Made by a program: the position numbers and the translations under genes. DNA of 64,000 nt from a virus. How positions within the stretch are numbered: position 1 is the first letter of the stretch; each line of letters starts with the position of its first letter. Under the pieces are notes generated by a model that saw only the letters and a list, made by a program, of their open reading frames with translations, was not told the DNA's origin and searched no databases. Of the stretch, positions 55,247-60,513 are shown in pieces. Location of the stretch: positions 1 through 64,000 of the IMG/VR virus record IMGVR_UViG_3300021335_000009. One strand, 5' to 3'.

Positions 55247-55612
55247 ATGACATCTGACAAGGTTAAAAAAATAACCCCGCATAGAAGAAAATTAAACATT
55301 TTAAGCAGGCTTCTTGACATTCCAGAAAAACAAAAAAGGTTTTTTTATGCTAGGGAAATGAAATTTTTAAAAATTTTAGAAGAAAGATATTCTTTAGATT
55401 TTTTAGAAATAATTACTTTTCCAAAAAAATATGACAGTTTGGCCATTTTAGTTTCAAAAGAGCTAAAACAAACTATGAATAAAAAATGGAATAATTTTAA
55501 TTTTAAAATTGACACTTCAAAATACCAAAAGTATAATATAGGAAAAAAATCAGGAGAAGATTTTGTACCTACAAAAAAACAATTAAAAAGAACAAAAGAT
55601 TTATTTAAATGA
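55247..55612 (+). CDS. Hypothetical basic protein
   Basis: 121 aa; TTGACA-N16-TAACAT promoter 7 nt upstream. Confidence 0.6.
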   Translation: MTSDKVKKITPHRRKLNILSRLLDIPEKQKRFFYAREMKFLKILEERYSLDFLEIITFPKKYDSLAILVSKELKQTMNKKWNNFNFKIDTSKYQKYNIGKKSGEDFVPTKKQLKRTKDLFK

Positions 55613-56721
55613 GCGACAAAGATTCACAACTACTAGAAAAATTCTTAAAAGAAACAAAAGGCCAACATTATAATTTTGAAGATACTATTGATTATAAAGT
55701 CTCAAGCGGTTCTTTGCAGCTCGATTTAGTTTTAGATGGTGGACTTGGGCCAGGACTACATAGATTTGTAGGAATGAATGAAGGAGGAAAAACTTCATCA
55801 GCTTTAGAGTTTATGAAAAACATGCTTAACAGTGTTCCAAAATCAAAAGGATTTTATATCAAAGCAGAAGGAAGGCTTTCTCCAGAAATGCAAAAAAGAT
55901 CTGGAGTAAAATTCGTTTTTAGCGCTAAAGATTGGGTAGAAGGAACATGTTTTGTATTTGAAAGTAATATTTACGAAGTTGTTGTTGACGCTATACACCA
56001 ACTTGTAGAACAAAACGAGGAAAAAAATAAATATTGTTTTTTGCTTGATTCTGTAGATGGCTTGATTTCTAAACAAGATATTGAAAAGTCTTTTTACGAC
56101 TCTAATAAAGTTGCTGGGGGAGCAGTAATCGCAGCCAACTTTATGAAAAGAATGTCTATTAAGCTTGCTAAAAGAGGACACATGGCTTTTTTTATTAGTC
56201 AAGTAAGGGCTGATATTACTTTAGATCCATACTCAAAAGCTCCTGTTCGACAAACTACGGCTACAGGAGGAAATGCATTGCTCCATTTTGCTAATTACAT
56301 TATGGAATTTGAACCTAGATTTAAAACAGATTTAATTGTTCAAGATCCAACTAAAAAAACTGTAGATTTAAAAACGAATCCTATTATTGGTCATTGGGCA
56401 AAAGTAACAATTAAAAAGTCTCCAAACGAAAAAACAAACAATAAAATTCTTTATCCTATTAAGTATGGAAGAGTAGGTGGAAAATCTATTTGGGTAGAAA
56501 AAGAATTAATTGATTTAATGTACATGTGGGAATTTATTAGGAAAAAGGGAGCGTGGATCATGATAGAAGAAGAATTAAAAGAATTAGTCAAAGAAGTTGC
56601 TCCAGATCTTCCCAACAGTATTCAAGGCGAAAATAACCTTTTTAAAACGATAGAAGGTAACGAAAAGCTTTCTAAATTTTTAGTTGATTATTTTAAGTCA
56701 AACATACACGAATCTGTGTAA
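55609..56721 (+). CDS. recA: RecA/UvsX-like recombinase
   Basis: SSGSLQLDLVLDGG, GMNEGGKTS, LLDSVDGL, ISQVR, TGGNAL.HFA. Confidence 0.9.
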   Translation: MSDKDSQLLEKFLKETKGQHYNFEDTIDYKVSSGSLQLDLVLDGGLGPGLHRFVGMNEGGKTSSALEFMKNMLNSVPKSKGFYIKAEGRLSPEMQKRSGVKFVFSAKDWVEGTCFVFESNIYEVVVDAIHQLVEQNEEKNKYCFLLDSVDGLISKQDIEKSFYDSNKVAGGAVIAANFMKRMSIKLAKRGHMAFFISQVRADITLDPYSKAPVRQTTATGGNALLHFANYIMEFEPRFKTDLIVQDPTKKTVDLKTNPIIGHWAKVTIKKSPNEKTNNKILYPIKYGRVGGKSIWVEKELIDLMYMWEFIRKKGAWIMIEEELKELVKEVAPDLPNSIQGENNLFKTIEGNEKLSKFLVDYFKSNIHESV

Positions 56722-57363
56722 TAGTATATAATATGGCCTTGACCTCTTGCATATCTATAGTTTTGATTTTTTAGATCTTTATGTAACGTCAAGGTTCTTC
56801 TGTTCTTTCTCATCTCTGGCCCTTGATCCTCCTATCCAGTCCTTAGCGATTGTGAAGAGCCTTGGGCATTCTTAATGCTGCGCGGCAGATCCTCCAAGCC
56901 TTATGGCTTTGGATATGGCTTTTTCCTCTTTCGCCCGATAAGTAAAGAGGCTTCTTTAAAAACCGACTAACAAACCAGAAACAGAACTGGGACAGCTTTA
57001 AGTGCTTGGAAACAAATGTAACGAGGTTTTCATTGTTCGGTTCCTCAGCTTTTTTAGACTTCCTGCAAATGTCTTTTGAGCGTTGCAGTGCCCGTAGATT
57101 CGCAACCTATGGGTTTAGTAGGCCCCCTGCGCCTCTGGCTTCCAAATTGGTTGCTAATTCCTTCCCAAGTGCTGACGAGTGCGTTAGGGTTGGTGCGTAA
57201 TTCAGGGGGTGTTTTCTTTATCAAACTTCCCACGCCACTCAATGAAGCGCAATTTGGGAGGTGGTTCTTTTTACAAATAGACCCCAGAACTTGTAACAAA
57301 ATAAGACTTAATATATTATATAAATAACTGAGTATCGAGCGTTTACTTATAATATGTTATTCA

Positions 57364-57439
57364 CTAGCCTTCCTCTAATAGCGATAAGACTCCATGCTTG
57401 ATCATGGTGAATGTGGGTATGCGAATTCCACAGGCTAGC
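57364..57439 (+). ncRNA. tRNA-like element 1 (6-nt anticodon loop)
   Basis: CTAGCCT/AGGCTAG acceptor; CCATG-CTTGAT-CATGG; GTGGG-TATGCGAAT-TCCAC; no CCA. Confidence 0.55.
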
Positions 57440-57444
57440 CCTTT

Positions 57445-57516
57445 AGTTCCATAGTTTAATCGGCAAAAATCCCGTAGTCACATTCGGAGTCCCCAGTTCA
57501 AATCTGGGTGGAACTT
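57445..57516 (+). ncRNA. tRNA-like element 2 (irregular anticodon arm)
   Basis: AGTTCCA/TGGAACT; D-arm TAGTTTAATCGGCAAAA; T-arm CCCAG-TTCAAAT-CTGGG; no CCA. Confidence 0.65.
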
Positions 57517-57624
57517 ACACAATAACACCTCTCACGCCTTTGGTCTGCATTGCGGACGCTTAATGGACTGAGCTTTTCTCGGTCGGGCGCACCAGAGGGG
57601 CTACTTTTAAAATAAAATAAAAAA

Positions 57625-58035
57625 ATGAAATTTAAATCCATCACATCTGGAAAAGAAAAATATTTAAAAAATCCATTTAGATTCAAGATAAAATGGAACG
57701 GCAAATGCAGAAGCAAATTTCAGTCTGAAGTGAGAAAGTATTTGTATAATTATTGGAAATACGATAGCGTTTACGAAGAATTTCCCATAATAGGAACCAA
57801 GCTTTCTTTGGATTTTTACAATCACACAAAAAAAATAGCAATAGAAGTTCAAGGAGCTCAACATTTTAAGTTTGTAAAACACTTTCACAAAACAAAAGCT
57901 AATTTTTTAAGACAAATTCGCAGAGATGATAAAAAAATGGAATTTTGCGAATTAAACGACATCAAACTTATAGAAATTTATCCAGACGATGAATTATCTG
58001 AAGATTTTTTTATAAAAATGCTGCATTCGGTGTAA
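57625..58035 (+). CDS. PD-(D/E)xK / DUF559-like endonuclease
   Basis: LSLDFY....IAIEVQGAQH...RDDKK..FC. Confidence 0.8.
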   Translation: MKFKSITSGKEKYLKNPFRFKIKWNGKCRSKFQSEVRKYLYNYWKYDSVYEEFPIIGTKLSLDFYNHTKKIAIEVQGAQHFKFVKHFHKTKANFLRQIRRDDKKMEFCELNDIKLIEIYPDDELSEDFFIKMLHSV

Positions 58036-58326: not shown

Positions 58327-60513
58327 ATGATATATAGTCTTGAAATTGAAAAACAAGTTTTAGCAGCTTTCATACAAAAGCCCAAGCTTTTAGTAAATTT
58401 TAATCATTTGATTAGCGAGGCCGATTTTCACAATGGCTCTCTTTTACATAAGACTCTTTTTGCTGTTTTAAAAAAAGCCTGCCAACAAGAAGAGTCTATT
58501 GACGAAGTTGTATTGGTTCAAAGAGTTAAAGAGCTTGGAATAAAATTCGAAGAAGATCTGTCTCTTATTGATTATGTAAAATCATTGTCGATGAGAAAGA
58601 TTCATTCCGAAGAAAAAATCAAATCTGTTGTCCAAGAATTAAAAAAGTATAGCGTAAGGCGAGAAATATACAAAACAGCAAAAGACATAGCTGATTCGAT
58701 GAAAACTATGTCTCCAAATGAATCGTATTTAGGCATAATTGAATCTGCGGATAAAATTTACAACGATAAAGTAAATTTATTTGAAGTGGGCAACGATGTT
58801 CCAGAAAACATTTACGACTCAATGGAGGAATTCATTGAAGAAAGAGGAAATAACCCTATTGAAGAATTTGGCATGATGGGGCCACATAAAAAAGTTAATG
58901 ATATTTATGGCTCTCTTTTAAGACCAGGGAATATTACGGTATTTGTTGCTCGCTCAGGAGTCGGCAAAATGAACCCTTTATACACAAAGGTATTAACTCC
59001 TGACGGTTTTACTGAAATGAGAAATATTTCAGTAGGGTCTGAGGTTGTTTGTCCTAATGGAAAAATTTCAAAAGTTTTAAAAACATTTGACCATAAGAAT
59101 AAAGATGTCTATAGAGTGACTTTTGAAGATGGAAGATATAGTGATTGTGGATTAGAGCACTTATGGAAAGTCTCTTACAAAAACAAAAGTTTTAAGTCTA
59201 ACTGGGTAGTTTCAGATACGCAACAAATTAAAAATGTATTAAACGAAGGCCATGAAGTTTACATTCCTTTAGTTCCTGAAATCAAAAATTATGAAGAAAA
59301 ACTAAAAAAATTAAAACTCTTTATTAAAGAAAGGACGGAATCTTCTCAAGAAGATCCTAACAGTTTAAATTACCTAACAAAAACAAAAACATTAGCAGAA
59401 AAAGTTCAAAAATTTGCATGGGCTTTGGGGGCAAAAGCAAAAATTTCAAGTTTAAAAATTTCTGACGATGACATATTCAAAGTTAAAATTGAAATCCCTG
59501 ATTTTAGAAACGAAAACTCTACAAAACTTCAAATTGTAGCCGTTCAAAAACTAGAAAAAAAAGAAGACTGCCGATGCATACAAATTGACGAAAAAGAGCA
59601 TTTATACATTATTGATGAATTTATTGTTACGCATAACACTCAATTATGCATGGATTATTCCACTAAGGTTTCCGCAAAATATGATGTACCTGTATTGCAT
59701 TTTGATAATGGAGAAATGAGCAAAGATGAACTGGTAATTCGTCAATGTGCAGCTCTTTCTGGAGTTCCTCCCCACTTATTAGAAAGTGGCAAATGGAGGC
59801 AGGCTGGAGACGAAACCGTTCAAAAAGTAAGAAGCGTTTGGAAAAAAATAAAAAATTTAAAATTTTACTATTATAATGTAGGAGGAATGGAAGTAGATTC
59901 CATGATTAACACATTAAAAAGGTTTTATTATTCTAAAGTGGGCAGAGGAAACAAAATGATATTTTCTTTTGATTATATTAAGACCTCTTCAGATAGCGGA
60001 TTTGGCAATAAAAATGAATGGCAGCTTGTAGGAGAAATGGTAGACAAGTTTAAAAAAACCATCCAAAAAGAAATTTTGGAAGACGGAGCTCCAGTAATAC
60101 CAATGATTACATCTGTGCAGTCCAATAGAAGCGGAATAACAACAAACAGAAATAGCTCTAACATTATTGACGACGAATCTGTGGTTTCTCTTTCTGACAG
60201 GATCACTCAGTTTTGCTCTCACATGTTTATTTTAAGACAAAAAACTAATGACGAAATGGCAGAAGAGGGTAGTCAATTTGGGACGCACAAATTAATTAAT
60301 GTAAAATCTAGACACTTGGGTAAAGATGTTGCTGGTGCGGTAGAGCCTGTTCAAGTAGGAGACGATCTTAGAAAAAACTTCATTAATTTATCTTTTAGAA
60401 ACTTTAACATAACAGAATGTGGGGATTTAAGAGATATTGTTTATTTTAGAAATTCTTCTGAAGATTTATCTACAGATTCTGTCGATAATGTTCCTTCGTT
60501 TGATGATTTATGA
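58327..60513 (+). CDS. dnaB: DnaB-like replicative helicase with intein
   Basis: EIEKQVLA N-domain; ARSGVGK/T Walker A split by intein; GEM, FDYIK, VQSNR. Confidence 0.9.
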   Translation: MIYSLEIEKQVLAAFIQKPKLLVNFNHLISEADFHNGSLLHKTLFAVLKKACQQEESIDEVVLVQRVKELGIKFEEDLSLIDYVKSLSMRKIHSEEKIKSVVQELKKYSVRREIYKTAKDIADSMKTMSPNESYLGIIESADKIYNDKVNLFEVGNDVPENIYDSMEEFIEERGNNPIEEFGMMGPHKKVNDIYGSLLRPGNITVFVARSGVGKMNPLYTKVLTPDGFTEMRNISVGSEVVCPNGKISKVLKTFDHKNKDVYRVTFEDGRYSDCGLEHLWKVSYKNKSFKSNWVVSDTQQIKNVLNEGHEVYIPLVPEIKNYEEKLKKLKLFIKERTESSQEDPNSLNYLTKTKTLAEKVQKFAWALGAKAKISSLKISDDDIFKVKIEIPDFRNENSTKLQIVAVQKLEKKEDCRCIQIDEKEHLYIIDEFIVTHNTQLCMDYSTKVSAKYDVPVLHFDNGEMSKDELVIRQCAALSGVPPHLLESGKWRQAGDETVQKVRSVWKKIKNLKFYYYNVGGMEVDSMINTLKRFYYSKVGRGNKMIFSFDYIKTSSDSGFGNKNEWQLVGEMVDKFKKTIQKEILEDGAPVIPMITSVQSNRSGITTNRNSSNIIDDESVVSLSDRITQFCSHMFILRQKTNDEMAEEGSQFGTHKLINVKSRHLGKDVAGAVEPVQVGDDLRKNFINLSFRNFNITECGDLRDIVYFRNSSEDLSTDSVDNVPSFDDL
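58969..59637 (+). mobile_element. Class 3-type intein (223 aa) beginning with Met, with endonuclease remnant
   Basis: GK/MNPLYTKVLTPDG ... CGLEHLW ... DCRCIQID ... FIVTHN/T. Confidence 0.85.

Follow-up and report, generated by a model that had tools for sequence, protein, structure and literature searches.

Between its UvsX/RecA-like recombinase gene and the next larger reading frame, the virus of IMG/VR record IMGVR_UViG_3300021335_000009 carries 903 nt (positions 56722-57624) that are poor in open reading frames (ORFs). This raises the question of what the gap holds: one large RNA, a string of small ones, or something else. The window analyzed here is the first 64 kb of this 84,169-bp record, which has an estimated completeness of 62% and an overall GC content of 0.333. 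The original prediction, made from the letters alone, had described a GC-richer, ORF-poor gap behind the recombinase gene and had placed an unexplained structured RNA at 56716-57300. Such a gap is indeed present: in 200-nt windows, the GC content is 0.41-0.48 over 56700-57299 compared to 0.27-0.33 in the flanking genes, and beyond the recombinase stop codon, an ORF of at least 100 aa is reached only at 57625. The GTGTAA motif singled out at the recombinase stop codon is there as well, but it is merely the end of the recombinase frame and is the same in relatives. We found that the stretch is not one RNA but a mosaic of cassettes, here called M1, C, D, M4, M5, M6, M7 and A, one of which (A) belongs to the abiF class. 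On balance, we incline to the view that A, and probably M7, are toxin-less antitoxin mimics that would act as decoys against a host AbiF/AbiD-type RNase.

The abiF cassette comprises the following parts:

57226-57262, + strand: module A, canonical abiF-motif RNA (Rfam RF03085; 31.4 bits, gathering cut-off 37)
57216-57225, + strand: linker UUUAUCAA(A/C), 5' of phage abiF hairpins, in 15 of 15 distinct contexts
57263-57299, + strand: tail of the abiF cassette; in one variant contig, 82 other letters stand in place of the whole cassette (57215-57299)

The match of A to RF03085 has an E-value of 0.0023 (3.5e-5 per record) and spans model positions 1-37 without a gap. The geometry is that of the family, with a 6-bp outer stem, an unpaired A, a 3-bp inner stem, an 11-nt loop, a 6-nt 3' bulge and a trailing U. 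Homologous copies score above the cut-off, both at the same genomic site (42.2 bits in locus L002, 39.2 bits in L038) and in other arrays (47.8 bits in L079, 45.1 bits in L069 and L081, 40.2 bits in L080 and L084), and the copies in L085 and L087 reach 34.1 bits. For the analysis of covariation, 11 distinct phage copies were aligned without gaps. Five of the nine pairs had changed on both sides, and 99% of the cells were paired, compared to 38-60% in slid controls. The covariation score of 0.491 was reached by none of 500 shuffles and by none of the slid controls (≤0.255). The letters of loop and bulge are conserved while the stems covary; the L069 copy, for example, differs from the window copy mainly by paired changes of the outer stem. 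Cassette A is therefore an abiF-class RNA, and the earlier statement that no known family can be recognized does not hold for this element, which is sub-threshold here and above the cut-off in homologous copies. The Rfam search proposed at the time thus returned abiF, although below the cut-off, but left GOLLD/ROOL, C and D unmatched. The linker precedes the hairpin regardless of the sequence upstream of it and is absent before three bacterial abiF RNAs; it might serve in processing or as a single-stranded handle.

We also looked for the toxin that goes with such an RNA. The family Abi_2 (PF07751) has no match at E≤1 in the 84-kb record, and none was found in three other array-bearing records, one of which is rated complete. 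A Bacteroidota metagenome-assembled genome (G007, loci L090-L092), which was a chance find, served as bacterial control. Here, all three Abi_2 genes have an abiF RNA approximately 120 nt upstream on the same strand (54.2, 39.8 and 27 bits), and each RNA is followed by a U-run. By eye, each of these RNAs also stands just behind a Bacteroidota-type promoter motif. In the phage record at hand, which is 62% complete, cassette A is an RNA without a complete AbiF toxin-antitoxin system.

The other cassettes of the predicted region, apart from M7, are listed here:

56735-56796, unstranded: M1, a long hairpin with an AT-rich core directly 3' of the recombinase stop codon, recognized by its fold z-score
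56800-56873, + strand: module C, a nested hairpin (9 distinct copies aligned)
56874-56956, + strand: module D, about 60 near-invariant nt preceded by a variable hairpin (hairpin 1)
56957-57061, + strand: M4, an AT-richer filler of 105 nt, skipped in contigs of X20 and X2
57063-57088, + strand: M5, a hairpin CUGCAA/UUGCAG that is also conserved, immediately 5' of M6 and M7, in L076, L080 and L084
57090-57114, + strand: M6, a hairpin whose stem is kept in relatives despite sequence change

That these are separate units is seen from their recurrence, singly or reordered, in unrelated viral and metagenome contigs, often amid tRNA genes on the same strand. The order in the window is C-D-M4-M5-M6-M7-A. 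Elsewhere, we found C-A-D3-M7-tRNA, C-M5-M6-M7-A, C-M5-M6-M7-tRNA, C-A-M7, A-M7-A, M7-F-B, M7 alone, C-A-B, A-B, A alone, X-B-D, D-E-B and E-D-C, with constant relative orientation of the modules across all loci. Variant contigs join across the cassettes: in a contig from a DNA run, 56873 is followed directly by 57062, so that D and M4 are missing; in a contig from an RNA library, 56956 is joined to 57062 and 57215-57299 is swapped for 82 other letters; in another contig, 147 letters take the place of 57383-57526. These junctions, together with the recurrence in other orders, rule out a single ornate RNA of GOLLD/ROOL size, which had been one of two suggestions in the original prediction, and they fix the borders of the cassettes. 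The other suggestion had been several small RNAs in a row, for instance decoys or antitoxin mimics, and a cassette array with an abiF-class member agrees with it.

Two elements of the gap may be enlarged relatives of A:

57122-57210, + strand: M7, abiF-like with expanded loop (custom model R1; 15 distinct copies)
57529-57600, + strand: M12, a closed two-hairpin element outside 56716-57300, matched by eye to L085 1565-1638

The outer stem of M7 is CCCCCUG/CAGGGGG and its inner stem CGC/GCG; where A has its 11-nt loop, M7 has two hairpins, and its 3' bulge reads UAAUU. It was compared to A by means of the covariance model R1, built from 11 distinct phage abiF copies including that of the window, which scores 53.1 bits. 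Positions 1-37 of R1 align to 57123-57210 with 58 nt inserted (21.7 bits); the E-values, which are rough, vary with the length searched (577 kb, 0.07; 102 kb, 0.012; 941 nt, 1e-4). Over the 577 kb of loci, R1 gave 26 matches at E<0.1. Nineteen were training copies and duplicates of them (50-62 bits), six were M7 copies (21.4-29.3 bits, E 0.0013-0.086), and one was a degenerate abiF-like hairpin in L085. The M7 alignments share the outer stem CCCCCU/AGGGGG, the inner stem CGC/GCG, the loop start CUCU, an insertion of 41-58 nt and the bulge (C/U)AAUUC.

Scans with two words of M7 yielded three viral and 19 metagenome stretches, with true copies in 17 of the 19 (not in L075 and L088), and an 18-mer from its first inner hairpin was found in no viral stretch. 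In 15 distinct copies, 96.8% of the cells are paired compared to 41-50% when slid. Two hairpins make up the insertion; at the tip of one of them, the copies differ in length by 16-17 nt, which argues against coding. An abiF hairpin lies within about 60 nt of seven of the 15 distinct copies and is complete in six of them. In L083, the contig includes only its 3' half, and in L087, abiF hairpins stand on both sides. In the window, 15 nt separate the end of M7 from the start of A. From these model alignments, M7 is probably an expanded abiF relative. At the place matching M12, the L085 element scores 19.1 bits with R1 (E 0.051) and the window copy has no R1 match; by this model, M12 may be a further expanded abiF-like RNA.

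Modules C and D are conserved in their own ways. C, which usually opens the array, consists of an outer stem GCCC/GGGC, an inner stem CUCC/GGAG and the conserved loop CCAGYCCYUAGCGRYUGUGA. Its nine distinct copies (56819-56870 in the window) have 94.8% of the cells paired compared to 35-48% when slid, and three of 15 pairs changed on both sides, a score reached by 0 of 500 shuffles. Covariation among homologues, the check that had been recommended, is seen for both A and C. D ends in CCYCUUUCGCCCGAUAAGUAAAGRGG; covariation is confined to its hairpin 1 (three pairs), and the rest is nearly invariant, with compatible pairs. An exact 20-mer of D occurs in 14 viral stretches in unrelated contexts, three of them in or beside tRNA arrays and on the tRNA strand. 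The copy in L047 adjoins an eight-tRNA array, the one in L050 lies within an 18-tRNA array, and the one in L049 is just upstream of tRNA-Met; in L046, D is found just upstream of an ORF that resembles a clamp-loader subunit by eye only. The D-bearing loci share further units (E, B, C and abiF-like hairpins) in changed order. An 18-mer from the D core retrieved eight stretches from 185,579 species genomes, which is about the estimated chance number, and none had the flanks of the motif. A loop-loop pairing CUUAU/AUAAG in D, noticed by eye, was dropped because one variant breaks it.

M1, for which no homologue was detected in related loci, was found solely in the array type of the window and may be a terminator or boundary element. 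M4 likewise has no homologue in related loci and is lacking in variant arrays. C, D, M4 and M6 matched no family in Rfam 15; we would guess that C, D, M5 and M6 are further stable decoy or processing elements. The array continues beyond 57300 with the following elements:

57291-57319, + strand: sigma-70-like promoter match before the tRNA-like cassettes (TTGTAA-N17-TATTAT, 9/12); the regional count of such matches equals chance
57364-57516, + strand: two tRNA-like cassettes of the same array, outside 56716-57300 (Rfam, ARAGORN)

In L069 and L079, the sequence of the promoter match is kept along with the cassette. Of the first tRNA-like cassette, the 3' part (57407-57438) recurs in L069, L087 and L089. 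The second (57445-57516) forms a tRNA cloverleaf according to Rfam (43.1 bits), but, unlike for a standard tRNA, ARAGORN assigned no amino acid and reported a two-letter anticodon.

Similar elements accompany the arrays elsewhere. A 60-nt tRNA-like element (Rfam tRNA, 43.3 bits) stands directly 3' of M7 at L083 2391-2450, L085 960-1019 and L089 502-561; by eye, it has acceptor, D and T arms, and its anticodon arm is reduced to a stub. The tmRNA model is matched over 67-68 nt (52-60 bits, above the cut-off) near arrays in L047 (5833-5899), L070 (1859-1926), L072, L073 and L077. With 374 positions in the model, stretches this short can represent only a fraction of a tmRNA, probably its tRNA-like portion. 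A small RNA of a named family, DUF3800-IX (57 bits), likewise lies in a phage tRNA island, at L049 11000-11062, on the same strand as tRNA-Met and module D and downstream of them. The arrays of L049, L053, L069 and L084 lie near one common large ORF, possibly a terminase, which is a guess made without family comparison. In the neighborhoods of 25 array-bearing loci, no protein family was shared beyond what lineage synteny accounts for.

We then considered folding, strand and coding capacity of the gap as a whole. All seven helices listed in the original prediction were recovered at their places in minimum-free-energy folds, with uneven statistical support. On folding energy alone, just 56735-56796, 57063-57212 and 57090-57114 stand out. 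The z-score of 57063-57212 is -2.6 on the + strand vs. -0.9 on the - strand, and M1 gives near-equal values of -3.9 (+) and -3.1 (-), as expected of a near-palindrome. Three versions of M6 folded singly reach -2.9 (window), -3.2 and -3.4. Compared to shuffles, there was no signal for 56800-56873 (-0.2), 56874-56956 (0.06), 56957-57061 (0.2) and 57215-57299 (-1.0). The asymmetry of the z-scores, the abiF and tRNA model matches on the + strand and the fact that the modules keep their orientation to one another in every locus favor the + strand, as had been proposed from G-U pairs. The ORFs within the gap (42, 64, 83 and 81 aa, the largest being 83) have no Pfam match at E≤1. Scans of the region gave four promoter sites vs. 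3.8 expected and zero terminator sites, and no transcription unit can be derived from them for the front of the array.

Sequences of this array type are also present in RNA libraries. Contigs over its cassettes were found in three metatranscriptome libraries from three different studies: they are 183 nt (56824-57006), 283 nt (57062-57282, from M5 to A) and 454 nt long, the longest connecting D, M5-M7 and the first tRNA-like cassette. No contig of these libraries covers the flanking genes; since variant flanks may fall below 85% likeness, this is not evidence of selective expression.

To see how the array is placed, we compared the site in related phages. Its flanks in the window are:

55609-56721, + strand: UvsX/RecA-like recombinase gene, upstream flank (Pfam RecA, 7.1e-10; phrog_97 UvsX-like, 2.9e-34)
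57625-58035, + strand: endonuclease-like ORF of 136 aa, downstream flank (phrog_559 HNH endonuclease, 6.8e-17; phrog_9084 homing endonuclease, 7e-13)

The endonuclease-like ORF matched no Pfam family. The gene order, all on the + strand, is GDP-mannose dehydratase, a 121-aa ORF, the recombinase gene, the gap and the endonuclease-like ORF, followed further downstream by a 79-aa ORF, a DnaB-type helicase, a primase and an exonuclease. Searching with the recombinase, we found 43 related loci with 66-84% identity, and the insertion site was evaluated in the 42 in which both flanking genes could be placed. In 26 of these, there is no gap, and the two genes overlap by 4-14 nt. Nine loci have the site filled with 61, 137-141, 194-195 or 230 nt of 44-54% GC, made of hairpin modules like those of the window: the 61-nt insert is A, the inserts of 137-141 nt are A+B, those of 194-195 nt are C+A+B, and the 230-nt insert is another hairpin plus B and D. 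The other seven carry 734-805 nt encoding a 237-aa protein, which is an alternative cargo at the same hot spot as the RNA cassettes. The endonuclease-like ORF is kept in all relatives, with inserts or none, including the 26 without any RNA. In a BLAST comparison of the gap with the related loci, two short pieces, C and D, and no more were matched. Because most syntenic loci have no gap and the others carry different inserts, the 903 nt of the window are accessory cargo and not a conserved part of the phage lineage.

Some further observations concern this setting. The 237-aa ORF (L030-L034, L042 and L043; e.g., L032 5150-5863) has a hydrophobic N-terminus by eye. A homing or HNH nuclease cutting nearby could explain the turnover of cargo at the hot spot. 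The helicase (58327-60513) has about 223 additional residues (215-437; window 58969-59637), and residues 214 and 438 abut in all related loci whose contig includes the helicase join; the extra segment is probably an intein. At the other end of the window, 105-1938 on the - strand is GC-rich, has frames open on both strands and adjoins an array of five tRNAs. As an RNA candidate, this GC-rich stretch (100-2000) was rejected, as it encodes beta-solenoid repeat proteins (YdcK-type, bactofilin-like). The gap (blastn) and the recombinase (tblastn) had no match among cultured-phage records. PHROGs comparisons of ten further proteins, the large ones tried included, gave three matches, none to a capsid or packaging marker.

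We arrive at the decoy reading because A is of the abiF class, toxin-less in the record, and part of a shuffled array with tRNA-like RNAs. AbiF is a HEPN RNase whose active site is blocked by its own noncoding RNA (ncRNA), which it also processes, and Cas13 is thought to descend from it (reviews PMC12737573, PMC13064643). The Clostridioides difficile ncRNA RCd22, with two abiF motifs 19 nt apart, binds AbiF directly and neutralizes it in cis and in trans; mutations that break the stems abolish neutralization, and compensatory ones do not (PMC12373285). The predicted stretch forms the front of a cargo insertion whose structured-RNA cassettes, all on the + strand, come from a repertoire shuffled among marine phages. 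In the model that we propose, the array would be transcribed from the + strand and processed into units, with the UUUAUCAA linker and the tRNA-like elements as possible sites of cleavage. A, and probably M7 15 nt upstream of it, would bind a host HEPN RNase of the AbiF/AbiD family, the phage RNA occupying the active site as the labile abiF RNA of the host does. The toxin would thereby be kept silent after the phage has shut off host transcription, and abortive infection would fail.

Several points weigh against the decoy reading. The score of A in the window lies below the Rfam cut-off. The link between M7 and abiF rests on a self-built model with rough, marginal E-values: Rfam's own abiF model has no match to M7 at E≤10 over 56500-57800, and with filters off, R1 missed M7 and gave only 3.6 bits for a part of it. 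The covariation of M7 is not significant, as its copies are near-invariant, with pairs that are compatible. With a record that is 62% complete, a toxin gene could be located in the missing part, and the host may lack an AbiF toxin. R1 found nothing in 151 Bacteroidota genomes; it also missed the three Rfam-positive copies of G007, which makes this search uninformative. No function can be assigned to C, D, M4, M5 or M6. The RNA-library contigs prove presence only and carry no strand. Finally, U-rich runs are found at the ends of several cassettes, which may simply be terminators.

A bolder version extends the decoy reading to the whole 903-nt insertion. This would be a multivalent RNA anti-defense island, in which each conserved cassette (C, D, M5/M6, the two tRNA look-alikes, M7 and perhaps M12) decoys a different RNA-binding or RNA-cutting defense protein. 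Phages would trade these cassettes like the protein anti-defense genes of accessory regions, and M7/M12 would be an undescribed, enlarged class of AbiF-family antitoxin RNAs. We consider this version speculative and put it forward tentatively.

The alternative that survives best sees the cassettes as cis-acting or selfish intergenic elements, i.e., terminators, stability hairpins, processing signals or mobile repeats, which spread by recombination and have no role in trans; the abiF-like hairpin would then be a passenger. In its favor, GC-rich hairpins with U-rich runs are found in intergenic spots of many contexts, D and M7 are nearly invariant as expected from recent spread, and most cassettes have no energy signal. 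However, the terminator scan gave no site in the region, a terminator has no need of a conserved loop and bulge on covarying stems as found in A, the 5' linker is retained in every context, and cassettes sit inside tRNA arrays on the tRNA strand. We therefore regard this explanation as unlikely.

Somewhat less plausible still is a phage-borne toxin-antitoxin or exclusion module, in which the abiF-class RNAs partner an unrecognized phage protein, comparable to the module of the C. difficile prophage. Prophages can indeed carry AbiF systems (PMC12373285), the record is incomplete, and many proteins of this phage match no family. Against such a partner speak the lack of Abi_2 matches in this record and the three others, the lack of a protein family common to array neighborhoods of different lineages, and the position of the RNA: in the bacterial control it lies about 120 nt upstream of the toxin gene, while the next ORF here persists in relatives without the RNA.

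The idea that the cassettes are base-pairing regulatory small RNAs, or sponges, acting on host or phage transcripts appears improbable to us. In its favor, the 60 nt of D are nearly the same in unrelated phages, which suggests a constraint on sequence rather than on shape. No target was found, though none was sought, the D core is not present in species genomes beyond chance, and for abiF-class RNA a protein-binding role is already known from the literature. Least tenable of all, to the point of being nearly dismissed, is one large ornate RNA of the GOLLD/ROOL type over 56716-57300 or the whole gap: length, GC content, the adjacent tRNA-like element and a global fold that pairs distant parts would suit it, but the GOLLD/ROOL models of Rfam have no match at the gathering score in the window or at E≤10 over 56500-57800, the parts are found apart and reordered, variants exist without D and M4, without M4 or with the abiF cassette swapped, and no long-range pair covaries.

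Phage counter-defense is mostly known from proteins. RNA decoys have been demonstrated at the bench for ToxI (PMC3475682, PMC3594212) and for CRISPR repeats (PMC10651486). If the decoy reading is true, a toxin-less abiF RNA in a lytic-type marine phage would mean that RNA mimicry also reaches the HEPN proteins of the AbiF/AbiD family. This family is the proposed ancestor of Cas13, whose guide RNAs are held to have their forerunner in the RNA of AbiF (PMC12737573). Phage tRNA islands also contain conserved cassettes that are not tRNAs (C, D, M7, B and E); these form a common repertoire and are absent from Rfam 15. Candidates that can be cloned are available in the form of A alone, or M7 plus A. 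A literature search yielded no paper that proposes a decoy role for phage abiF RNAs, although the primary AbiF-Cas13 paper (Zilberzwige-Tal 2025) and supplementary files lay outside this search and may mention it.

Among known systems, the closest relatives are the abiF/AbiFr/RCd22 RNAs, the type III antitoxins of AbiF/Abi_2 HEPN RNases, with which A shares the geometry and the conserved letters of loop and bulge. The tandem motifs of RCd22 are spaced by approximately 15-19 nt (PMC12373285), and M7 and A are likewise 15 nt apart. In contrast to the bacterial loci, in which the toxin follows downstream in all three controls, none is found in this phage record. The phage copy further differs from bacterial abiF by the UUUAUCAA linker and by its place in an array with unrelated cassettes and tRNA-like RNAs, and M7 differs by 41-58 extra nt in the loop.

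Like A, the pseudo-ToxI of phage PhiTE is a phage-borne toxin-less RNA, an antitoxin mimic that defeats ToxIN abortive infection (PMC3475682, PMC3594212). It belongs to a different toxin family (ToxN, not HEPN), its repeats are 36 nt long and its mimicry was shown at the bench, whereas here it is inferred. RNA anti-CRISPRs (Racrs) are comparable in that solitary viral copies of the RNA partner of a defense protein act as decoys; they are derived from CRISPR repeats, and candidates were reported for all CRISPR types except type VI (PMC10651486). The marine/estuarine cyanophage S-CREM1 likewise has an abiF small RNA (51.6 bits) in a cluster of structured RNAs (PMC9964418). Its cluster includes wcaG and manA motifs, neither of which Rfam detected in the window, and its abiF RNA was reported with no decoy role proposed (PMC9964418). 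GOLLD and ROOL are similar in size range and in their phage/tRNA neighborhood, whereas the array described here is a chain of separable units. The kind of element proposed here, a phage-borne RNA antitoxin mimic, is thus known, and what is new is a probable enlarged abiF-like relative together with several unnamed conserved cassettes.

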